NCBI GenBank assembly: GCA_964511375.1
Contig: CAZEEW010000006.1
Coordinates: 279 to 64,278, forward strand
Direction of reading: 5' to 3'
DNA length: 64,000 nucleotides
From: an uncultured Gammaproteobacteria bacterium
Lineage (GTDB): Bacteria; Patescibacteriota; Patescibacteriia; Magasanikbacterales; GWA2-37-8
The notes under the pieces were generated by a model, which saw nothing but the letters and a program-made list of their open reading frames with translations, was not told where the DNA came from and made no database searches. Positions 15,951 to 60,407 of the stretch are shown piece by piece; the stretch's first letter is position 1, and every line of letters begins with the position of its first letter. A program made the position numbers and the translations under genes.

Positions 15951-16475
15951 TTACATTAAACCATTAACTGTGCTTTGTAGGGCACGGATCGCTTCAGGTA
16001 TTAGCGGCCAAAGAATCGAAGCAATATTTACTGTGTAAGGAGCAACTTCAGAATGAGCCAAGGCTTCCATGAATCGGTCGCTAACTGGGAAACGAGAGAT
16101 AAAGTAGAAAATTAAGCCTAATACTATGGCACCTTCTAAAATTCCGAAAACCATCCCGAGTAAGCGGTTGATAGAATTGATGAAGGGCAACCGCGTAATT
16201 AGACTTAAAACTTTGTCGATCAACCAAAATACTAATCCAACTATACGATTGATCAAAAAGAACGCGATAACAAATATTAAAACTTTGGAAAAGTTAGGTG
16301 ACCAATGTGTCACATTCATAAGCCAGTTAGCCACTGGTTCATAATACCGGAAGGCCAGATAGGCGCCGAGAACGGTGCCAACTAGTGAGCCTAAGGTATG
16401 CACCAAACCAAACCATAGCCCAAACAACCCAAACGATCCAATGATGATTAGTAAAACGATGTCAAAAAATGACAT
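15951..16475 (-). CDS. CvpA-family membrane protein
   Basis: Four TM helices, N-terminal FFDIVLLIII pattern typical of CvpA. Confidence 0.5.
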   Translation of the reverse strand: MSFFDIVLLIIIGSFGLFGLWFGLVHTLGSLVGTVLGAYLAFRYYEPVANWLMNVTHWSPNFSKVLIFVIAFFLINRIVGLVFWLIDKVLSLITRLPFINSINRLLGMVFGILEGAIVLGLIFYFISRFPVSDRFMEALAHSEVAPYTVNIASILWPLIPEAIRALQSTVNGLM

Positions 16476-23149: not shown

Positions 23150-24394
23150 TTAAGCCTTGTCAAGTGAGGATAAAAAGTCCGAGATTTTAATAAGCTTAGC
23201 GCTTTCTCCGCTTCGTGCCTTGTATTCTAAGGATTCTTCGGCTAGTGTCTTTTTAGACACTACTAAACGATGAGGAATACCAATAAGATCAGCATCAGCA
23301 AACTTTTCTCCGGCCGTTGGTCCTTCCCGGTCATCATACAATACTTCTAGTCCCAAGTAACATAATTGAGTATATAATTCCTCAGCGCTCTTACGCACCA
23401 GCTCATCTCCACCTAAGACCACGAGGTGGTATTTAAAAGGCGCAACTGTTTCTGGCCAGATGATACCTTTGTTGTCATGGCTCACTTCTACCAAAGTACC
23501 CATAATGCGCGACGGACCCATTCCGTAACATCCCATCTCCACTAAATGTTCTTTCCCGTCTTTATCTGCATAATTAAAACCGAATGGCTCGCTAAAGCGA
23601 GTACGGAGTTTAAAAATATTACCTACCTCAATCCCCTTTTTTTCTTTTAAATCTACATTACCGCATTCGGGACAGGTCTTTTGTTCTTCAATTATTTCTT
23701 TGTTGATCGCAACTTTACATTTTTCACATAAATAAATTGTATCCTCACCACTTTCACACAGGGTCTGGAATTCATGTGAATATTTACTAAATACACCCCC
23801 AGAAGCAAAGGTCAAAACAGTTTTTTCTTCCAAGCCAAGCCGTTCATATGCTTTGAAATATGCTTGTTTGACTTTTTCGTAATATTTGTCTAAATCTGCT
23901 TCATCTACGTGAAAAGAATACAAGTCCTTCATGTTGAATTCCCGACCGCGTAAAATACCGGACTTTGCTCGTGGTTCGTTTCGAAATTTATTTTGAATTT
24001 GGTAAACAGCTTGTGGTAAATCTTGGTAAGAAAAAGTATATTTCTTTACCAAAGGCGTCACAATCTCTTCATGAGTAGGATTTAAAAAATATACAGCTTC
24101 ACTTGGTCCAGTGGTTCGGAAAAGTATATCCATACCATCACGGCCAGTTGTTTTGTAGTTTTCTTCTTGAGTTAAGGTGGGCATGAGAATTTCATTTGCC
24201 CCAACTGCATTCATTTCCTCACGAATAATATTTTGAATTTTATTTAAAACTCGAAGACCTAAGGGTAAATAGTTGTATACCCCAGCCATTTGCTTGGAGA
24301 TATACCCGGCTTGGATTAAAAACTTAGCATTAATACTATCTTCATCTGAAGATATGGTCTTACTGGTCTTTCCAAATATCTGTGAATAACGCAT
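23150..24394 (-). CDS. proS: prolyl-tRNA synthetase (short form lacking the INS editing domain)
   Basis: N-terminus MRYSQIFG...AKFLIQAGYI...GVYNYLPLGLRVLNKI aligns to ProRS; class II motif 2 FRNEPRAKSGILRGREF. Confidence 0.8.
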   Translation of the reverse strand: MRYSQIFGKTSKTISSDEDSINAKFLIQAGYISKQMAGVYNYLPLGLRVLNKIQNIIREEMNAVGANEILMPTLTQEENYKTTGRDGMDILFRTTGPSEAVYFLNPTHEEIVTPLVKKYTFSYQDLPQAVYQIQNKFRNEPRAKSGILRGREFNMKDLYSFHVDEADLDKYYEKVKQAYFKAYERLGLEEKTVLTFASGGVFSKYSHEFQTLCESGEDTIYLCEKCKVAINKEIIEEQKTCPECGNVDLKEKKGIEVGNIFKLRTRFSEPFGFNYADKDGKEHLVEMGCYGMGPSRIMGTLVEVSHDNKGIIWPETVAPFKYHLVVLGGDELVRKSAEELYTQLCYLGLEVLYDDREGPTAGEKFADADLIGIPHRLVVSKKTLAEESLEYKARSGESAKLIKISDFLSSLDKA

Positions 24395-24480
24395 ATATAG
24401 AGCTTAAAAACATGGCTAAATTATACCGAATAACACTGAATTAGTCAAAACTACGTAAAATAATTATACACAAAAAAATG

Positions 24481-24509
24481 TTGACGATTACCTACTTTTC
24501 CGGTATATT
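24481..24509 (+). promoter_or_regulatory. sigma70-like promoter TTGACG-17-TATATT driving the GC-rich cassette 1
   Basis: Near-consensus hexamers with 17-nt spacer, about 125 nt upstream of the ATG. Confidence 0.45.
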
Positions 24510-24534
24510 ATTCGACTGTTCTTTTACAAGCACA

Positions 24535-24586
24535 CCGAGGCGAGCTCTAAGTGGACATCTCTATGCCCCTTTAGAGCTCACCTCGG
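24535..24586 (+). promoter_or_regulatory. 5'UTR hairpin: 16-bp inverted repeat CCGAGGCGAGCTCTAA/TTAGAGCTCACCTCGG with 20-nt loop
   Basis: Read directly; sits between promoter and RBS AAAGGAG. Confidence 0.4.
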
Positions 24587-24634
24587 AACAGATTCAAGGT
24601 TGAGCGCAGAATACCGCAGCGGAAAGGAGAATAC

Positions 24635-25066
24635 ATGCACCGCTGCGACGCCGTTCTGATCTCGTGTTTCGACTGGCGCATCCGGCGTCGGGTAGACGCC
24701 TGGATGCAATCGCAGGGTTACTTCACTTACGATCCCCTGCCGTATCCGGGGATCGTTGGTGTGATCAACTCTCCAACCTGCCCTGAAGGTCGGGAATTCG
24801 TGTTCCAGGGCGTGGCGAAGTCCCTCCGGCTCCATGCGCCCCACGACATCGTCGTCGTCACCCACGACGACTGTGGGGCGTTCGAGAGGTTCTTCTCCTC
24901 GCCTGAGGAAGAACGCTCATTCCACCACGAGCAGCTGCGCCTCGCGGCTGCTCTCATTCGGGCGCGCTGGCCCGAAGGGCCGGCGATTCGCCTGCTGTAC
25001 CTGACCGGTACGGCGTCCGTCGTGGACGCCAACACCGGTCATATCACGGTCGAGGAGCTGTCCTAG
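24635..25066 (+). CDS. beta-carbonic-anhydrase-like small protein (143 aa), GC-rich foreign-looking gene
   Basis: CxDxR (SCFDWR) and HxxCG (HDDCGA) beta-CA zinc-ligand motifs; AAAGGAG RBS 5 nt upstream; GC3-biased codons unlike host. Confidence 0.55.
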   Translation: MHRCDAVLISCFDWRIRRRVDAWMQSQGYFTYDPLPYPGIVGVINSPTCPEGREFVFQGVAKSLRLHAPHDIVVVTHDDCGAFERFFSSPEEERSFHHEQLRLAAALIRARWPEGPAIRLLYLTGTASVVDANTGHITVEELS

Positions 25067-25206
25067 CCCTCGACCTCTCCTGCCTTGGCCCGCTCCGGGC
25101 CAGCTCCATTTGGGCCCGGCGTCGTTCTTCGGCTCCTGGTCTCAAGAGAATGTATTTTAAATGTATCTTCTTGAGAGCCGAAGAAAATGTGCTTTAAAGA
25201 TACAGT

Positions 25207-25237
25207 AAAACACTCCTTTTTTAGGGAGTGTTTTGTT
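25207..25237. terminator. rho-independent terminator hairpin AAAACACTCC-loop-GGAGTGTTTT + T-run, shared by cassette 1 (+) and uppP (-)
   Basis: Perfect 10-bp stem then TTGTT; lies between two convergent genes. Confidence 0.55.
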
Positions 25238-25251
25238 ATATTTTTAAAGTA

Positions 25252-26028
25252 TTAAATAAACAGGATAATTAACCAGATACTAGCCAGGATTATCCTATAC
25301 CACCCAAAGCCTTCAAAAGTATGGTTTTTAATAAAGCGAAGCAGAAACTTAATCGCAAAGAGAGCAACGATGAAAGAGGTAACAAAACCAAATGCTAAAG
25401 TCACCCACTCGCTTTGACTAAAGGCAAAGTTAGATTTTATAAGATCAAGGCCAGTGGCAGCCGCCATAGTTGGCACTGCTAAAAGAAAAGAAAATTCAAT
25501 AATCGTTTTTCTGTTTAGCCCTAAAAGCAAACCTCCAATAATTGTTGCCGCCGCCCGGGAAACACCAGGCACAATAGCTAATGACTGGAACAGACCAATA
25601 AGACCAGCCTGTTTGTATGATATATCTTCTAAGTTATTTTCTGGTAGTTGCGGCTTCTTTGAATACCATTTTTCAAATATGATCATAAGTATACCGCCGA
25701 CCAATAGGGCTACCAACACGACGATTGTGTTGCCAAGCAAAAATTTTTTAATCAGAGAATAAAAAATTAGACCAATAATTGCCGTTGGTACAAACGCGGT
25801 TGCTACTTTTAAAAATAACGTTCGGCTTGACCAAATTTTGTTCCAGTAAAGTACCACGACAGATAATATAGCCCCTAGTTGGATAGCAATTTCAAAACTT
25901 TTCCAAAATTCGGTATCGGGAAGATTCAATAAATTTGCCGTCAAAGTTAAATGGCCGGTAGAAGAAATAGGTAAGAATTCCGTAATCCCCTCAACTATCC
26001 CGAGAATAATCGCCTGGATGTGCATCAT
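25252..26028 (-). CDS. uppP: undecaprenyl-diphosphatase
   Basis: BacA signature GxxEGxTEFLPISSTGH. Confidence 0.85.
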   Translation of the reverse strand: MMHIQAIILGIVEGITEFLPISSTGHLTLTANLLNLPDTEFWKSFEIAIQLGAILSVVVLYWNKIWSSRTLFLKVATAFVPTAIIGLIFYSLIKKFLLGNTIVVLVALLVGGILMIIFEKWYSKKPQLPENNLEDISYKQAGLIGLFQSLAIVPGVSRAAATIIGGLLLGLNRKTIIEFSFLLAVPTMAAATGLDLIKSNFAFSQSEWVTLAFGFVTSFIVALFAIKFLLRFIKNHTFEGFGWYRIILASIWLIILFI

Positions 26029-27758: not shown

Positions 27759-28962
27759 AGCTTTTATTACGTAAGAGGAACATGAATAAAATCGCTGCCA
27801 AGGCGGCAGTAAAGGCACCAAGATAAAAAGGTGTGGCTGGACTTACATATTTCCAAAGTAACCCCGCTAAAGTTGAGGCGACAAAAGTTAAAAGACCGGT
27901 CAAAGTCAGGTAGGCTCCGATCGCGGTGCCTATTCGCTCTTTTGGAACTAACTCAGAAATGTAGGCCTTGCTTATGCCGTCCGTTAAGCCCATGTAGATT
28001 CCGTACAGGGGGAATAAAAACCAGACCCAGAAAGTGGAGTTAATCAAACCAAAAAATAGATACACAAGAGCAAATAACCAAAATCCAGCCGTTAGCACCT
28101 TGCGTGGACCAATTTTATCACTTAACCAACCTGCGGGATACGAGGATAAGAAATAAGTTACATTGAAAGTAACATAGGCAGTGACCGTCCAAGTAACAGC
28201 TAAACCCAAGTTATTTGCACGCAAAATGAGAAAAGCATCTGAGCTATTGCCAATCGCAAACAGGGCGCTCACCAACAAAAACAGCTTTAAACGAGTATCC
28301 ATGGTTTTCCAATTAAACCTAAAGGGTTTTTCCTCTTTAGGTTTAGCAATCCCCAATTCTTCAGCGCTTTTACGTTTTTCTTTGACAAAAAGAACTAGTA
28401 GGGTTACCCCAATTAACGACGGTATGAAGGCAATAAAAAAAATTGTCCGGTAATTATTTGAATAAAGATGGATAAGTAAGAGCGCCAAAAGCGGCCCAAT
28501 CACTGCACCTAAGCTATCCATTGAGCGATGTAAGCCAAAGGCTCGGCCGCGATAAGCTGGGTCAACACTTTCTAGTATAAGAGCGTCACGCGCTGAGGTC
28601 CGTGTCCCCTTTCCAATCCGGTCAATAACACGAGCGAACAAAACAAAGCCCCAAGTACGCGCTAGACCGATTAATAGTTTAGACAAGGTCGAAAACGAAT
28701 AACCAGCGGTAACAAAAAGTTTACGCCGACGAATTTTGTCGGAGAACCAGCCGGAGACGACTTTTAAAATACTGGCCAAAGACTCAGCAATACCTTCAAT
28801 GATACCAATAATTGTAGCCGGTGCTCCCAAAACCAAATTTAAAAACAGTGGCATTATTGGTACGATCATTTCGGAGGCAATATCATTAAAAAGACTAACC
28901 AGACCCATTACTATGACGTTACGAGAGATTGGTTTTTGATGAGTACTTCCTTGCATAAGCAT
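27748..28962 (-). CDS. MFS transporter
   Basis: 12 TM helices, MFS loop motif GxxSDKIxRRK between TM2-3. Confidence 0.7.
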   Translation of the reverse strand: MLMQGSTHQKPISRNVIVMGLVSLFNDIASEMIVPIMPLFLNLVLGAPATIIGIIEGIAESLASILKVVSGWFSDKIRRRKLFVTAGYSFSTLSKLLIGLARTWGFVLFARVIDRIGKGTRTSARDALILESVDPAYRGRAFGLHRSMDSLGAVIGPLLALLLIHLYSNNYRTIFFIAFIPSLIGVTLLVLFVKEKRKSAEELGIAKPKEEKPFRFNWKTMDTRLKLFLLVSALFAIGNSSDAFLILRANNLGLAVTWTVTAYVTFNVTYFLSSYPAGWLSDKIGPRKVLTAGFWLFALVYLFFGLINSTFWVWFLFPLYGIYMGLTDGISKAYISELVPKERIGTAIGAYLTLTGLLTFVASTLAGLLWKYVSPATPFYLGAFTAALAAILFMFLLRNKSYAS

Positions 28963-29039
28963 TTACAATATGTGCTTATTTTATACTAAAAAAGACAGGA
29001 CTGCAACTATAGTCCTGTCTTTTGGTTTTGTATTTAGGT

Positions 29040-30350
29040 CTACTCTCGCGTACCTAATTTTAATTTAATTTTCTTTTCAGTACCTTTATGGAATATCTTT
29101 AGTTCAATTTCGTCACCTGGCTTGTGGTTAGCAACAATGTCCGCAAGGGTAAATCCTTCATTTAGTTGTTTGCCGTCAACCTCGAGAATGATATCGTTCT
29201 CTGTTAAACCAGCTTTTTCAGCTGGTGAACCAGGCATAACTGCGACATCACTTTGTTTTTCGCCGCGTGAAACTAGCATACCGTAATCATACGGCAAATT
29301 ATTTTCGTTTTTAATGCTACGGTTAATTGGGACGTAACGAACGCCGATGAACGGTACTTTATCCGCACTAATCTTGCCACTAGCCTTTACTTCATCAAAC
29401 GCCTCATGTACTTCATTGGCAGGAATAGTAAATCCAATACTTTGGGCATTAGCCATGGCTACATTCATTCCAATAACATTACCGCCAATGTCTAACAACG
29501 GTCCACCAGAATTCCCAGGATTAATCGCTGCATCAGTTTGGATTAAGCCCCTGAGTCTTTCCGGTCCACCAGCGGAGCCGCCAGCTATGATTGATCGAGA
29601 CAAACCGGAGACAACACCTTTACTAACTGTATTCGCAAATTCACCCAAAGAATAGCCAATAGCAATAGCGGTTTGGCCGACCTTAATCTTTCCGGAGTCA
29701 CCAAAAGTAAGGTAAGGTAGATTTTTCATGTCAATTTTCAAAACAGCGATGTCATTGTTTGGGTCACGAGCTAAAACTTTGGCACTTACTTTCTTACCTT
29801 GATTGTCTTTATCATTTAGTATTACGGTATATTCAGCATTCGTGTCCTCAACAACGTGCTTGTTGGTCATAATATAGCCGTCATCCGAAACCAGAAACCC
29901 TGTACCTGCCCCCACCTGTTTTAATTCTGTGCCACGTTCGCACAAAGTAGGCACATCAAACAAGCCCTCAAATCCAGGCGGAAGATTTTGAAAGCCCGGG
30001 CTTCTTTGGTAGCACTGCTCTAAGCGTGGTACTTCCGCAGAAGCCACGATACTCACAACAGCTGGTGAAGCTTTTTCAACCACACTGACTACTTGGTTAT
30101 CTTCATTAACCACGCGTACCGTAGTTCCGTCAGACTGAGTTACAGTCTCACCATCGTTATTGCCAATACCCAAGCTATTTTTAAGCCTGTCCCAGGGCGC
30201 GAAAGCAAAATCTCCTCTACCCGATTCCCTGTTTGGATTTGGTTTGCTATATGCTTGTAAGGTAAAAATTAGGACAATTACTAAAATGATAGCGCCAAAA
30301 ATCTTGATAATACTCCTTTGTGATGTATTGTTAGAATATATTTTGTCCAT
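29040..30350 (-). CDS. HtrA/DegP-family serine protease with PDZ domain
   Basis: Catalytic triad context incl. GNSGGPL, N-terminal TM anchor, C-terminal PDZ. Confidence 0.85.
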   Translation of the reverse strand: MDKIYSNNTSQRSIIKIFGAIILVIVLIFTLQAYSKPNPNRESGRGDFAFAPWDRLKNSLGIGNNDGETVTQSDGTTVRVVNEDNQVVSVVEKASPAVVSIVASAEVPRLEQCYQRSPGFQNLPPGFEGLFDVPTLCERGTELKQVGAGTGFLVSDDGYIMTNKHVVEDTNAEYTVILNDKDNQGKKVSAKVLARDPNNDIAVLKIDMKNLPYLTFGDSGKIKVGQTAIAIGYSLGEFANTVSKGVVSGLSRSIIAGGSAGGPERLRGLIQTDAAINPGNSGGPLLDIGGNVIGMNVAMANAQSIGFTIPANEVHEAFDEVKASGKISADKVPFIGVRYVPINRSIKNENNLPYDYGMLVSRGEKQSDVAVMPGSPAEKAGLTENDIILEVDGKQLNEGFTLADIVANHKPGDEIELKIFHKGTEKKIKLKLGTRE

Positions 30351-36772: not shown

Positions 36773-36826
36773 TTGACTTTAACCTTATAGTGTGGTACAA
36801 AGGACAGTTCAAAAACTGTTCTTTTT
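36773..36826 (+). promoter_or_regulatory. weak promoter-like TTGACT-17-TACAAA followed by small hairpin ACAGTT-CAAAA-AACTGT + T-run (possible attenuator/terminator) upstream of cassette 2
   Basis: Read directly; -10 is poor, function uncertain. Confidence 0.25.
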
Positions 36827-36841
36827 AAATTAATTTTGGCT

Positions 36842-36896
36842 AAGCTGACTTGCATAGTGGACATCTAACACAGGTGTTTAGTGTACCAGTCAGCTT
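36842..36896 (+). promoter_or_regulatory. 5'UTR inverted repeat AAGCTGACT ... AGTCAGCTT (9-bp stems, about 37-nt loop) upstream of cassette 2 ORF
   Basis: Read directly. Confidence 0.35.
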
Positions 36897-36954
36897 TGGA
36901 AAAACCACAGAACCAACCTGTGATGATTCAGGTTGAAGAAGCAGGGAGGCAACA

Positions 36955-37299
36955 ATGGGAGTGTTTCTCGTCCATCTGATCGTCCATCTCCTGGTCAGTG
37001 CTCTGATGGCGGGGGGAACCTACTTCTTCAGGGCACGACGGGCCCTGAAGAACGGGAAACACCTCAACGGGACGTTGACCGGAATGGTTAACGTCCTTAG
37101 CTGGACGCTGGCCCCAGTCTTCGCCAGCATAATTGTTCCGTATCCTGAAGAGCGGTCACTGAGACTGTGGTGGATCTCGGTGGCAGCCGCTTACCTGCTT
37201 AGTGCCGTTGCCATCTGGGTGAGTATTTTCCTCGCCCGGAGTTTGACTGGCTACGAACCACCGTATCCCACCGTGGAGGATGAATTGCCCACCGACTGA
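36955..37299 (+). CDS. small GC-rich membrane protein (114 aa, 3-4 TM), foreign-looking
   Basis: ORF track; RBS GGAGG 6-7 nt upstream; high GC3 codon usage unlike host; hydrophobic helices. Confidence 0.5.
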   Translation: MGVFLVHLIVHLLVSALMAGGTYFFRARRALKNGKHLNGTLTGMVNVLSWTLAPVFASIIVPYPEERSLRLWWISVAAAYLLSAVAIWVSIFLARSLTGYEPPYPTVEDELPTD

Positions 37300-37333
37300 G
37301 CAGACCGCACGTCTCATCCGAAGGGATCGCGCG

Positions 37334-37397
37334 CTCGTACATGGCTCGGTCTCTAGAGTAACTAAGTAATTAGTTCTTCTAGAGAGTTATGTACGAG
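37334..37397. repeat. 64-bp nested imperfect palindrome (CTCGTACAT...CTCTAGAG-T-AACTAA-GTAA-TTAGTT-CTTCTAGAGAG...ATGTACGAG) 3' of cassette 2 ORF
   Basis: Read directly; outer 9-bp arms perfect, inner arms perfect/near-perfect. Confidence 0.5.
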
Positions 37398-37404
37398 ATA
37401 AAAT

Positions 37405-37436
37405 AAAAATACCTACCTAAGTGGGGGGTATTTTTT
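37405..37436. terminator. intrinsic terminator AAAAATACC-13nt loop-GGTATTTTT + T-run, shared by cassette 2 (+) and tdk (-)
   Basis: 9-bp stem with flanking A/T runs on both strands between convergent genes. Confidence 0.45.
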
Positions 37437-37453
37437 AATAAATTTAAATACTG

Positions 37454-45994: not shown

Positions 45995-46063
45995 AGTAAT
46001 TTTATGCTAACATTGCAAAATATCTATGGCAACCTGGCAGAGCATTATTAGATATACCGTAAC

Positions 46064-46092
46064 TGACAATACGGTCATTTGTGTGATATAAA
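46064..46092 (+). promoter_or_regulatory. sigma70-like promoter TGACAA-17-TATAAA for cassette 3
   Basis: Read directly; followed by hairpin GTCCGC-AAAGC-GCGGAC (46098-46114) and RBS GGAGGA 5 nt before ATG. Confidence 0.4.
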
Positions 46093-46139
46093 ATCAGGTC
46101 CGCAAAGCGCGGACTTCATCACCGTCACGGAGGAAACCG

Positions 46140-46658
46140 ATGTCCAAGCGCAACTGGGTGGCTATCAACGAGCTCGAGAACTACCATTTCCGCGTCCTGG
46201 TCGCGACGACCGACGACGCGGAGATCCTGGCCGGGCTCGAGCGGGGCTTCCCCGAGCTCTTCCTCGCGGGCGAGGAGGCACCCCTCTACCCGGTGCCCCT
46301 GTCGGTTGTCCAGAGCCGAGCCCGGGAATTCTCGATGCGCGAGTACCCCGATGAGAAGTGCTGGCAAGAGGACCAACACTTCATCCTGTGCTGGGGCACC
46401 TGCGACGACCTCGACATCCCGACCGCCTTCACCTGGGATGCCGACAACGAGGAGATCCCCCCGGAAATCCTCCAACAGTTCATGGGCCAGAGAGCCCAGG
46501 CCGGCATGACGGTCGTGATCGACGACCGTCGCTACCTGGTCTGGTTCATCGCGTTCAAGGTGGGCGAGGAGATCAAGCCCGGGGACACGTTCGAATCCCC
46601 ACCCAAGCTCGACAGGCTCGACCTCGTCGATGCCGACTTCGTCGACCTCGAGAGCTGA
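46140..46658 (+). CDS. acidic 172-aa hypothetical protein, GC-rich foreign-looking gene
   Basis: ORF track; strong RBS; about 65% GC with GC3 bias; no recognised motif. Confidence 0.5.
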   Translation: MSKRNWVAINELENYHFRVLVATTDDAEILAGLERGFPELFLAGEEAPLYPVPLSVVQSRAREFSMREYPDEKCWQEDQHFILCWGTCDDLDIPTAFTWDADNEEIPPEILQQFMGQRAQAGMTVVIDDRRYLVWFIAFKVGEEIKPGDTFESPPKLDRLDLVDADFVDLES

Positions 46659-46686
46659 TGGCGCTCGCGGCCCAAGGAGGGCCAGA

Positions 46687-46754
46687 CCGGGGCAGGAGAT
46701 ACGTCTCCTGCCCCGGTCAGCTACCTAAACATCTTTTGAGAAGATGTTTTTTTA
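46687..46754. terminator. tandem hairpins: perfect 13-bp stem CCGGGGCAGGAGA-TACG-TCTCCTGCCCCGG then terminator AACATCTT-TTGAG-AAGATGTT + T7; second hairpin also serves the convergent Y-family polymerase gene
   Basis: Read directly. Confidence 0.6.
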
Positions 46755-46758
46755 ATAC

Positions 46759-49178: not shown

Positions 49179-49940
49179 CTATTTAGCCAGGAAGATCGGG
49201 AATTTAAACCTAAGAATATAACCGTTCCTTGTAACTCTTGCGTAACGAGAATTTTTACCGATTGTCTCTTGGATTTTGAATATATCCTTAGAGCCTATGT
49301 TATACCGCTCGACATGCTCTTTTTCAGTAATAATAAGGTCCTTACTTGTACCAATTTTCTTAAAATAACTAAAACCCGCTGACTTGTGTATTTCTTTTAT
49401 ATCTTTCGACTGAAAATGACGATTACCAATATTTGGCGTTTGGTTATATACCTTATCCAATTTGTCCCGGTCAATTAAGTTAGTTATATAAGCTGGCTGA
49501 TTTACAAACAACCCTCCGGATTTTAGATGCTTTCTAATTATCTTTAAGACCCTAATCTGCAGTTCTGTAGTTGGAAAATAGTCTAAGGAGCTTCGCATTA
49601 TTACCACGTCAAACTGTTTTCGAAGATCAAGTTTTAAAAGATCAGCGCAAATCTTTTTCGTTTCTGGATTGGTATTCCCACGCAAATGTTTATTAGAAAT
49701 ATCTACTAAAGTCAGTCTCCCCTGCCCAAGTTTTTCTAACAATCGCTCGCCAAGTAGCCCAGAGGCCGAAGCGACGTATAAAATTTCCAATGGTCCTCTG
49801 GGTAAAAGTGGTTTAACAGCTTTAATAAACATGGTAATATTCTCTTCATTAGAGAAATAATTACCATAAGTCTTGAGCCATTCCTTACCCAGAACTTTCT
49901 TATCCCGCTTTAGGTTATAAGCAGCAGCACGTGAAAACAT
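49179..49940 (-). CDS. class I SAM-dependent methyltransferase-like protein
   Basis: Gly-rich motif I-like VASASGLLG and acidic motif II-like DVVIMRSSLDY. Confidence 0.4.
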   Translation of the reverse strand: MFSRAAAYNLKRDKKVLGKEWLKTYGNYFSNEENITMFIKAVKPLLPRGPLEILYVASASGLLGERLLEKLGQGRLTLVDISNKHLRGNTNPETKKICADLLKLDLRKQFDVVIMRSSLDYFPTTELQIRVLKIIRKHLKSGGLFVNQPAYITNLIDRDKLDKVYNQTPNIGNRHFQSKDIKEIHKSAGFSYFKKIGTSKDLIITEKEHVERYNIGSKDIFKIQETIGKNSRYARVTRNGYILRFKFPIFLAK

Positions 49941-49943
49941 AAT

Positions 49944-50516
49944 CTATTCAGTTGCCATAATTATCTTCCCACATTTTTCTTCTATATTACGGACAACTGT
50001 GAACACCTCATCAATGGTTGGTTCGAGGGCAATAAATTCATAACCGTTTTTTAACCGTGCGGTTACACGCCGATCATGGGTTTGCGTGATTTGCCTGACT
50101 TGACATTCTTCAATTAAACCAACCATGGTTTTCCAATTCTCCTCAATAGTAACTGAGGGGTTGGTAGAGGGCGCTAAACAAACAATCGCGCACTTGTTAT
50201 CACTTAAACAACGGGCGGCTTTTTGACAGCCAGAACGTTTACTATCATCTACTGGTAAAACACAATCATCGTCAACTACACAACTATAATCAGTTGATTG
50301 GAAAATTTCGTATGGACAAGGAGCAAAAGAGCAATCAGGACCAGTTCGACCGACCGCGGAACCATCAGCACAAATTTTTGCTTCAGTAGTACAAGCAGTT
50401 TCTTTTGGCTGGTTAAAAAATATTAACCATCCCAATACCAAACCGGTGGTTAATAATAACAAGACCAAAAACAAAAGTAATAAGGAAGATTTTTGCTTTT
50501 TAAAAACTTCTAACAT
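49944..50516 (-). CDS. membrane-anchored Cys-rich secreted protein
   Basis: N-terminal TM/signal, 14 Cys in mature part. Confidence 0.35.
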   Translation of the reverse strand: MLEVFKKQKSSLLLLFLVLLLLTTGLVLGWLIFFNQPKETACTTEAKICADGSAVGRTGPDCSFAPCPYEIFQSTDYSCVVDDDCVLPVDDSKRSGCQKAARCLSDNKCAIVCLAPSTNPSVTIEENWKTMVGLIEECQVRQITQTHDRRVTARLKNGYEFIALEPTIDEVFTVVRNIEEKCGKIIMATE

Positions 50517-60110: not shown

Positions 60111-60407
60111 TGGCTCCGGGGGCGGGATTCGAACCCGCGACCAATTGATTACACTTACCTACTTGTTTCCAAATAGTGTGGACTATATCATCACCCCGAC
60201 GATGTCGGGGGCAAGGCGCTTCGACCAATTACCTGGTCTACTCCTTTCGGATAGTCTCTGAACCTTCCTGCTTTCGCAGGCTTGGCTGCTGATTACCATT
60301 GCCTTTCGACTTTAGGCTTCCAGCAATTCACCTTGTTTTCTGCCTTAATTACTTAAGGTAGCTGCGTTAAACCACAGTCAACTGCGCTACCGCTGCGCTA
60401 CCCCGGA
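60111..60407 (-). tRNA. tRNA-Asn(GUU) gene interrupted by a group I intron in the anticodon loop (exons 60374..60407 and 60111..60151)
   Basis: Perfect 7-bp acceptor stem (UCCGGGG/CCCCGGA) pairs across 297 nt; D-arm GCGC-AGCGGUA-GCGC; T-arm GCGGG-UUCGAAU-CCCGC; spliced loop CUGUUAA gives anticodon GUU with U1-A72 and G73 as in E. coli tRNA-Asn; CCA encoded. Confidence 0.65.
60152..60373 (-). ncRNA. group I self-splicing intron (222 nt) inserted between nucleotides 35 and 36 of tRNA-Asn
   Basis: Core elements AAUGGUAAUCAGCAGCCAAGCC and GGUUCAGAGACUA match conserved P3/P4/P6 and P7/J8-7 sequences of group I introns (Tetrahymena GUUCACAGACUA; Azoarcus AGAGACUA, GCCAAGC); 5' exon ends in U with GCAG internal guide pairing; intron ends in G. 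Confidence 0.65.

Follow-up and report, generated by a model that had tools for sequence, protein, structure and literature searches.

A GC-rich gene unit with a predicted, strongly structured transcript between proS and uppP in Candidatus Magasanikbacteria and the apparent exchange of its coding part

The 64-kb stretch of DNA analysed here (the window, to whose positions all coordinates refer unless another locus is named) comes from a host genome of ~38% GC and contains, between proS and uppP, a GC-rich island (~24,520-25,190; 57-68% GC) with a single gene for a 143-aa protein. Is this island foreign DNA, and if it is not, what accounts for its composition? An earlier reading of the sequence alone had taken it for a recently acquired or engineered expression unit. 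Comparison with related loci indicates that the island is a real, long-resident, self-contained gene unit of a Candidatus Magasanikbacteria lineage (Patescibacteria, or candidate phyla radiation, CPR), and not a fresh import. The explanation that we favour, with about even confidence, is that this unit (hereafter the cassette) gives rise to a hyper-structured mRNA with paired ends, whose coding part is exchanged by recombination.

Residency of the cassette and identity of its protein

The compositional step from which the question arises was recovered upon recomputation. In intervals of 200 nt the GC content is 54-68% across 24,500-25,199 vs 30-42% in the flanks; the coding sequence (CDS; 24635-25066, plus strand) has 63.2% GC and a GC content at third codon positions (GC3) of 0.785, vs 0.30-0.40 for 11 neighbouring genes, and the surroundings are, as the sequence-only reading had described them, AT-rich and on the minus strand. 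The order of the bases at third positions of the CDS (C3 > G3 >> T3 > A3) is that of generic high-GC codon usage, and the actinobacterial likeness drawn in the sequence-only reading was not borne out. All the elements listed in that reading, namely a promoter, an inverted repeat in the 5' untranslated region (UTR), a ribosome-binding site (RBS), the 143-aa open reading frame (ORF), a 3' palindrome and a terminator, are present where it had placed them, and the unit is indeed self-contained: monocistronic, on the strand opposite to its neighbours, with a promoter and terminator of its own. The promoter (TTGACG-17-TATATT, 24481-24509, plus strand) matches at 10/12 positions, is replaced at the same place in relatives by TTGACA-17-TACACT, and is homologous to the promoter of a second unit of the window (36773-36801), to which we return below; promoter prediction alone is not above chance (4 promoter-like sites vs 2.2 expected). 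The RBS, AAAGGAG (24623-24629, plus strand), precedes an ATG at 24635, and the hairpin-dense CDS that starts there is defined by ORF calling, Pfam, composition, AlphaFold2 modelling and folding.

Residency was judged from related loci and contigs of other assemblies, which carry L-numbers; those to which the neighbouring RNase H-like gene led belong to Candidatus Magasanikbacteria. Four lineages bear the cassette: that of the window's own copy (W), which has an identical copy in an independent Logan assembly (L004); L001/L002/L003, from JGI and ENA; L005; and L090, an 83-kb ENA contig. Partial copies are found in L006 and L091-L095. The unit adjoins proS in all four lineages, in independent JGI, ENA, NCBI and Logan assemblies, and the promoter block, the 5' hairpin, the 3' hairpins and the terminator are common to all of them. 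The recurrence of the same unit in independent assemblies excludes a chimeric assembly, which the sequence-only reading had entertained, and with no donor in sight the claim of recent acquisition or engineering is largely refuted as well. Between W and L001 the neighbouring proteins are 74-86% identical and synonymous sites are saturated (proportion of synonymous differences, pS, 0.73-0.83); for the cassette protein, which is 80% identical, pS is 0.52 and the ratio of nonsynonymous to synonymous divergence (dN/dS) 0.15, a clear sign of purifying selection.

The slot is occupied also beyond these lineages. A remote, GC-elevated homologue of 224-240 aa lies beside proS in L031, L057, L059 and L066, whose ProRS is ~70% identical to that of W; it carries CxD and HxxCG, and is kin to Pro_CA_2, the Pfam family of the cassette protein, by hhalign (83% probability, E 9e-6) and by hidden Markov model (HMM). 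In L066, where the locus extends far enough, uppP is on the other side of this homologue, and in L031 a leader motif as in W is found at its transcript start. A gap of only 23-73 bp separates uppP from proS in four lineages with ProRS 51-67% identical to that of W. Empty proS-uppP sites, which the sequence-only reading had proposed to look for, are present in some more distant lineages only, the site being occupied in the close ones. Among the marks of a recent island, atypical composition is found, while absence from close relatives and donor or mobility genes are not; the locus showed neither mobility genes nor a tRNA or flanking direct repeats. A metagenome scan for more alleles re-found only L001, a scan of viral contigs for the 3' motif gave no match, and ProRS-guided look-ups added L090 and one short contig without the cassette.

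The protein itself is, by profile searches and a structural model, a genuine member of a known, uncharacterised beta-carbonic-anhydrase-like family. It passes the Pfam model Pro_CA_2 (PF20393, 'putative carbonic anhydrase') with 42 bits vs a cutoff of 30 (E 1.3e-10, residues 3-114), and the L005 allele does so with 34.5 bits. The earlier description of a short beta-carbonic anhydrase (beta-CA)-like protein holds for this family and not for the canonical Pro_CA model (PF00484), whose threshold is missed (16.3 bits vs 25.7) with a local match over residues 70-105 only; canonical beta-CAs are distant relatives of Pro_CA_2, and the cassette protein is shorter than they are. The CxDxR and HxxCG motifs pointed out in the sequence-only reading, C11-x-D13-x-R15 and H77-x-D79-C80-G, fall on conserved columns of a 40-sequence family alignment, with C11, D13 and R15 invariant and H77, D79 and C80 at least 90% conserved, and none of the four alleles has lost the catalytic residues. 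The AlphaFold2 model has a predicted local distance difference test (pLDDT) score of 95.6, and its top 28 Foldseek matches in the PDB are all beta-CAs (E from 3.5e-5), at query-normalised template-modelling scores of only 0.43-0.58. In solved beta-CAs (3las, Rv1284) the HxDCG motif has its aligned counterpart in HHTDCG; for the N-terminal CxDxR there is a match at the family level only. On these grounds the protein would be a minimal beta-CA-like fold in which the zinc ligands (Cys/His/Cys) and the Asp-Arg pair are retained. The weak sequence matches in the PDB include relatives of the same fold that hydrolyse COS or CS2.

A HMMER scan of 1.84 billion cluster representatives, standing for about 15 billion proteins, returned 519 relatives, the best of which, after the 80% identical orthologue (P0002), is 38% identical; no possible donor above this value was found outside the clade among these representatives. 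The cassette protein resembles the Pro_CA_2 family in being a single domain of ~140 aa with CxDxR, HxDCG and a beta-CA-like fold. It differs in being at most 38% identical to any other cluster and in lacking the AYGG segment of the family, in whose place it has CGAFE with a deletion. The family is frequent in Patescibacteria, where its NCBI name is carbonic anhydrase, and its genes elsewhere follow the host GC content: 74% in a 72% genome, 31% in a 33% Paceibacterota genome, 48% in a 48% genome. Ordinary members match their genomes and have no excess RNA structure, whereas the cassette deviates in both respects.

Some further observations concern the relatives. A GC-elevated segment of ~300 nt just upstream of proS in L016 (4440-4760, minus strand), with similar ones in L008, L038 and L059, contains no convincing ORF and matches nothing in Rfam; a decayed cassette and an undescribed RNA are both conceivable. 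L006 and L091-L095 (first 373-441 bases) share an identical ProRS and break off within the GC-rich CDS, at the palindrome GGAACCCGCTCGGCGGGTTCC or close to it on either side. To judge from these contigs of five further assemblies (L091-L095) and from the genome record L006, such GC-rich, palindrome-rich units may be systematically broken or lost, and are probably under-represented, in CPR metagenome-assembled genomes (MAGs). In L090 the gene caller picked the wrong frame (182 aa, GC3 0.44). Many third-party annotation (TPA) MAG records titled 'uncultured Gammaproteobacteria bacterium' (L005, L009, L010, L016 and others) show Magasanikbacteria-like gene content and synteny, with an RNase H-like protein 60-84% identical to that of the window; their titles look mislabelled.

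Predicted fold of the transcript

All RNA structure reported here is computed prediction, and refers to an inferred transcript of roughly 730 nt (24515-25245), for which pairing is predicted over nearly the whole length. The folding energy of this transcript is -361 kcal/mol vs -260 +/- 5.3 for dinucleotide shuffles (z = -19), and the CDS alone has z = -7.7. When the shuffling is restricted to synonymous codons, so that protein and codon usage are kept, the CDS has z = -5.6 in W, -7.9 in L001, -4.1 in L090 and -2.8 in L005, vs +0.2 for a native high-GC Pro_CA_2 gene and -2.4 for the first 432 nt of proS. Native Pro_CA_2 genes from the 72% GC genome (L086) and from a 33% GC genome have z = +0.5 and +1.0, respectively, with dinucleotide shuffles. 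Among 159 plus-strand segments of 400 nt covering the 64 kb (mean z -0.72, sd 2.0), the cassette is an extreme outlier at -14.8. In these computations excess pairing is seen to accompany the GC island, and may be what has made it GC-rich.

The two ends of the transcript are predicted to pair with each other. The 5' arm of this closing helix, ACTGTTCTTTTACAAGCACA (24515-24534, plus strand), begins at the inferred transcript start, ~6 nt past the -10 box; the 3' arm, TGTGCTTTAAAGATACAGT (25188-25206, plus strand), lies between the long 3' hairpin and the terminator. The helix has 18 pairs and is found unaided in the minimum free energy (MFE) fold. Over the 4 lineages 97% of its positions are paired, vs 26-46% in slid controls, with two two-sided (compensatory) changes, two G-U intermediates and duplex energies of -17.7 to -20.9 kcal/mol. 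It is followed by the 5'UTR hairpin (24535-24586, plus strand; 19-24 bp), whose 24-nt arms are 83% complementary and contain 2 compensatory pairs, and then by an 8-bp stem, CGCAGCGG/CCGCTGCG (24615-24647, plus strand), present in both MFE and centroid folds and identical in L001, which holds the RBS and the ATG in its loop. On the 3' side of the CDS there is a hairpin, CCGGGCC...GGCCCGG (25095-25119, plus strand), conserved in W, L001 and L005 and present as a variant in L090, and next to it the long 3' hairpin (25124-25186, plus strand) that corresponds to the palindrome GTTCTTCGGCTC...GAGCCGAAGAA. The basal 12-bp stem of the latter, GTTCTTCGGCTC/GAGCCGAAGAAC, is invariant, its 5' arm has a 4-nt bulge, and its distal stem covaries. 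The intrinsic terminator (25204-25247, with the hairpin at 25204-25237 and a T-run) has sites on both strands and looks bidirectional; it is situated between the convergent cassette and uppP. Compensatory pairs number 4 for the two 3'UTR hairpins together, and 1 for the terminator.

The coding region is predicted to be a chain of 8-12-bp stems. Over the whole transcript, 195/243 of the pairs predicted for W survive in L001, vs an expectation of 174 +/- 7 given the observed substitutions (P = 0.0004), and there are 12 compensatory changes vs 5.5 expected (P = 0.009). The divergence between the two is 0.19 at paired and 0.27 at unpaired positions, and a constraint on pairing would account for the lower synonymous divergence between the W and L001 cassettes than between the genes around them. 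For the UTR helices, stability is modestly higher when the sense strand is folded. The coincidence of the terminal helix with the inferred ends of the transcript favours, without proving it, a role of the fold in RNA.

No known RNA family accounts for the island: a search of Rfam 15 gave no match at gathering level, and a permissive scan yielded only chance-level hits (E at least 0.014) on the terminator. Rfam also had no match in the GC-elevated regions beside proS of eight other loci, and a covariance model of the 3' hairpin found no instance beyond its five training copies in 1.1 Mb. The leader motif TGYTCTTTWAMAA was discarded as a general marker, its matches in L019, L073 and at 49632 of the window being ordinary sequence, and an equation of GC islands with structure fails as a general rule for L012, L026, L029, L032, L041 and L062. 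Elsewhere in the window the AT-rich 400-nt segments 49601-50000, 16001-16400 and 28801-29200 gave z of about -5 to -6 in a coarse 12-shuffle scan, values that may be noise; the first of them is inside an ordinary methyltransferase-like gene. A group I intron is present at 60159-60383 (minus strand; Rfam RF00028, 82.8 bits, E 1.5e-19).

Allele replacement and other framed units

The four lineages fall into two types of allele, A (W and L001) and B (L005 and L090). The proS genes of L005 and L090 are 90.8% identical at the nucleotide level, and the 5' intergenic region and UTR are 93-100% identical. Directly past GAGGTGTGAG, just 5' of the RBS, identity falls to 40-70%, to recover at GGCCCGGCGTCGG in the 3'UTR; the two cassette proteins are 56% identical, with a synonymous divergence (dS) of about 1.0. 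Near-identical flanks around diverged coding parts are the pattern of recombinational replacement and not of uniform hypermutation. By this mosaic of identities, the coding part has been replaced by recombination between lineages, with breakpoints at the inner edges of the conserved UTR frame. Type B proteins are 32-39% identical to those of type A, and the two types are reciprocal best non-self matches among the family representatives, by a narrow margin (76-80 vs 66-76 bits). Type B retains the AYGG segment that is absent from type A, which indicates that B is not derived from A.

The long hairpin and downstream trmB flank of L090 are 97% identical to those of L001, while their cassette CDSs differ and their ProRS are of different types (414 aa in L090 vs 566 aa in L001). 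As judged from such comparisons, the whole proS-uppP slot is a recombination mosaic. The ProRS of L001 (2081-3781 of that locus) has an editing domain, which sets its 566 aa against the 414 aa of the window's, and it is precisely from the proS start codon that the nucleotide sequences are similar again. In L001 and L090 trmB, together with a binding-protein or nucleotidyltransferase gene, lies between the cassette and uppP.

Two other sources of local diversity were considered and rejected. Uniform local hypermutation is ruled out by the synonymous sites of W and L001, at which divergence is lower than in the neighbouring genes. The target of a diversity-generating retroelement would be expected to show an adenine-specific pattern, whereas the alleles differ by indels and at all bases, and third positions are depleted in both A and T. 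No repeat of the cassette region was found elsewhere. A parallel of a different kind is offered by agr and pherotype-type loci, at which hypervariable specificity alleles are kept by exchange within conserved flanks. The cassette resembles them in that its alleles share 32-56% protein identity between near-identical flanks with sharp breakpoints, and in that its genealogy disagrees with that of host genes; it differs in having no evident partner gene or specificity function, and in the conservation of the catalytic residues in all alleles.

The frame itself is seen a second time in the window. The second unit (36773-37440, plus strand, antisense to its neighbours) has a promoter TTGACT-17-TACAAA, the leader CTGTTCTTTTTAAA, an RBS and a 114-aa ORF (36955-37299, GC3 0.68) that is unrelated to Pro_CA_2 and looks membrane-like by sequence; its transcript has z = -8.5. 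The apical 11-mer of the cassette's 5'UTR hairpin, AGTGGACATCT, recurs in this unit at 36856, and these copies, the second of them in a long 5' hairpin, are the only two exact ones in 64 kb. Likewise GGTCTCAAGAG, in the long 3' hairpin of the cassette, is found again at 37348, and GGTCTCWAGAG has its only two copies of the window in the long 3' hairpins of the two units, that of the second unit being followed by a terminator. These correspondences show that a paralogous frame with different cargo is present at a second locus of the same genome.

Other units have a comparable architecture. A third GC-rich unit (46063-46758, plus strand), between a diacylglycerol-kinase-like gene and dinB/lexA, contains an ORF of 172 aa (46140-46658, GC3 0.90) with no Pfam match. 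The unit has a hairpin at its 5' end, another of 15 perfect bp on the 3' side (46685-46718) and a terminator, and z is -4.4 for the CDS and -6.0 for the transcript. In L079 (15100-15720) and L080 (15110-15750), both on the minus strand, an unrelated cassette is made up of a promoter, a 5' hairpin, a 100-aa GC-rich ORF, a long 3' hairpin and a terminator. The leader, TTGTTCTTTAAC, and a 12-mer 487 nt further downstream, GTTAAAGAACAA, are complementary without mismatch and make up a 12-nt terminal inverted repeat. The flanks of these two copies are 90-91% identical, while the 365-bp GC-rich core has no similarity by blastn and the 100-aa acidic ORFs share only ETTVVDV.

The genes that enclose the cassette in the window are those named by the sequence-only reading, ProRS (proS, 414 aa, 23150-24394) and BacA/UppP (uppP, 25252-26028), both on the minus strand and the latter convergent with the cassette. 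A divergent promoter-like site for proS, TTGACT-17-TATAAT (24420-24448, minus strand; 11/12 match), is conserved in W, L001, L005 and L006, and belongs to the intergenic block common to all cassette-bearing relatives.

Alternative explanations and biological meaning

According to the explanation that we favour, the cassette would be transcribed alone and antisense to its neighbours, with a sigma-70-type promoter at its start and an intrinsic terminator at its end. The first transcribed bases would pair with the segment just upstream of the terminator and so close the transcript; the 5' hairpin would follow the closing helix, and the RBS and AUG would be exposed in the loop of the 8-bp stem. 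Folded from end to end, the mRNA may be long-lived and possibly translation-gated, and the enzyme made from it may hydrate CO2 or a related small molecule. The UTR frame would be retained while the coding cargo is replaced between lineages. A fold that acts in the mRNA, for stability and perhaps for translation gating, would find its closest known analogue in the full-length hok mRNA, which adopts a closed form through the 5'-3' fold-back stem tac/fbi (PMC9841398), the likeness being known from the predicted fold. As in hok-type type I toxin mRNAs, the transcript is compact and monocistronic, its 5' end is predicted to pair with the 3'UTR just before the terminator, and its translation start region is placed in local structure. 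Unlike in these mRNAs, the product is a 143-aa soluble enzyme-like protein instead of a small membrane toxin, no minus-strand promoter-like site (that is, no antisense promoter) is predicted inside the cassette, and the Shine-Dalgarno sequence is in a loop rather than sequestered.

Several results weigh against this explanation. The fold is throughout a prediction. With four sequences the covariation of the closing helix is statistically weak, as 58/500 shuffles reach the observed values, and for the CDS taken by itself the retention of pairs is borderline (112/141 vs 103.5 expected, P = 0.06). The CDS is about equally structured on the antisense strand, which means that its stems are Watson-Crick palindromes and that the signal could act in DNA. 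Several other GC3-rich ORFs of Magasanikbacteria have z of -1.5 to +1.1, so that GC-richness in this lineage must have another cause too. Carbonic anhydrase activity, with the canonical Pro_CA model not passed, is a prediction only. Finally, the empty uppP-proS junctions of more distant lineages mean that an old insertion, or a horizontal origin, in the sub-clade is possible. Since the claims on structure rest on prediction and on only four lineages, our confidence in a mechanism at the RNA level is moderate. The unstructured ORFs mentioned above (L012 2438-3091, L026 107-349, L041 312-671, L062 117-440, L032 1335-2948; GC3 0.82-0.96) seem to form another class of GC island and may be plain imports.

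An old transfer of this kind, in which one sub-clade would have received the unit from a high-GC organism, for instance an actinobacterium, with incomplete amelioration since then and with a structure that is incidental or came later, is the alternative that survives best, and we still regard it as unlikely. It accords with codon usage of the high-GC type at all three codon positions, with the occurrence of Pro_CA_2 in the 72% GC genome (L086), with the amino-acid composition of high-GC type in many of the best phmmer matches, and with both the empty junctions and the import-like ORFs just described. It has to contend with the lack, beyond the 80% orthologue, of any relative more than 38% identical among the representatives of about 15 billion proteins, and with the reciprocal best matching of type A and B alleles. 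The GC-rich state moreover persists where host genes are saturated at synonymous sites, and in the remote homologues of the slot; the GC-rich UTRs are conserved along with it, and a native high-GC homologue is without excess structure (z of +0.5 and +0.2).

Slightly less probable in our estimate is that the unit works as DNA, its terminal inverted repeat and hairpins being single-strand or cruciform recombination sites, or products of template-switch repair, so that the density of palindromes would drive breakage, recombination, allele replacement and perhaps GC-biased conversion. The excess pairing is in fact of Watson-Crick type and nearly equal on both strands, the breakpoints at the inner edges of the frame are sharp and the flanks mosaic, and two loci of one genome have paralogous 5' and 3' frames around unrelated cargo. 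The L079/L080 cassette, with its perfect terminal repeat and dissimilar core between similar flanks, fits as well, as do the contigs L091-L095 and L006 that end inside the CDS of this allele. Against this stand the absence of any recombinase, transposase, target-site duplication or multi-copy spread among what was seen, an inverted repeat that runs from the inferred transcript start to the terminator, as suits a role in RNA, UTR helices that favour the sense strand, and a cargo that at the proS-uppP locus always belongs to one protein family.

Among known systems, integron gene cassettes come close to the unit described here: both consist of one short gene with an imperfect, bulged hairpin behind it, the cargo varies among strains inside a conserved frame, and a second framed unit bears different cargo. 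The attC core sites of integrons have the consensus RYYYAAC...GTTRRRY. The long 3' hairpin ends in GTTCTTC...GAAGAAC, which does not fit these sites, and each locus has a single copy of its motif. Promoter and terminator both belong to the unit, which does not form part of an array, and the cargo at this locus is always of one family. An attC identity was rejected on these grounds. Among the genes called up to ~3 kb away in the direction of proS and 1.2 kb in that of uppP, no integrase was found.

It is improbable that the folded RNA itself is the main product, for instance one that is processed by RNase III or bound by a protein, with coding as a secondary function. Long GC-rich regions in AT-rich bacterial genomes are a known signature of structured non-coding RNAs, used by the GC-IGR approach to discover them in intergenic regions (PMC6429828, PMC11109978, PMC8723152), and the cassette is like them in that its GC island coincides with strong predicted secondary structure. 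Its z of -19 and its place as the strongest segment of the plus-strand scan, in which the segment from 60001 that holds the minus-strand group I intron is not among the 14 strongest, agree with this idea, and the 11-mers common to the hairpins of the two units suggest a shared binding factor. The island differs from such RNAs in being protein-coding and under purifying selection (dN/dS 0.15) and in having no Rfam family; the catalytic residues kept in all alleles and the confident structural model (pLDDT 95.6) likewise speak for the protein. An assembly chimera or an engineered construct, for which only the sharp compositional step can be adduced, is refuted by the identical locus in the independent Logan assembly L004 and by homologous loci in JGI, ENA and NCBI assemblies from other samples, and the covariation in the UTRs speaks against it as well.

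The protein of the resident, end-paired mRNA unit that we favour is an ordinary member of a known family; it is the architecture of the transcript and the exchange of cargo that are unusual and apparently undescribed. The literature searched on the GC content of Magasanikbacteria, on GC-rich structured mRNA in Patescibacteria and on PF20393 yielded nothing relevant. A broader proposition, doubtful as it stands, is that Magasanikbacteria and perhaps other CPR bacteria have a whole family of framed cassettes, in which a conserved promoter, leader, hairpins and terminator bracket a hairpin-dense GC-rich cargo, the transcript is closed end to end, and the inner edges of the frame are where cargo is swapped between lineages and possibly also between loci. 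If this were true, it would amount to a new system of cassette exchange operating on folded RNA or single-stranded DNA without a known integrase, and to unusually persistent mRNAs that might serve dormancy or an episymbiotic lifestyle.

For the cassette itself, the GC island coincides with a protein-coding transcript that is predicted to be more structured than any other 400-nt plus-strand segment scanned. If the explanation that we favour holds, compositional islands in AT-rich CPR genomes should not be taken for foreign DNA by default. The cassette, though found in organisms that are hard to culture, would then be a natural case of structural design of a whole mRNA, with end-to-end closure and a hairpin-dense CDS that is kept through compensatory and amino-acid-changing substitutions, and the sharp replacement of alleles, together with a second unit of different cargo, would point to recombination-based cassette exchange in reduced genomes.

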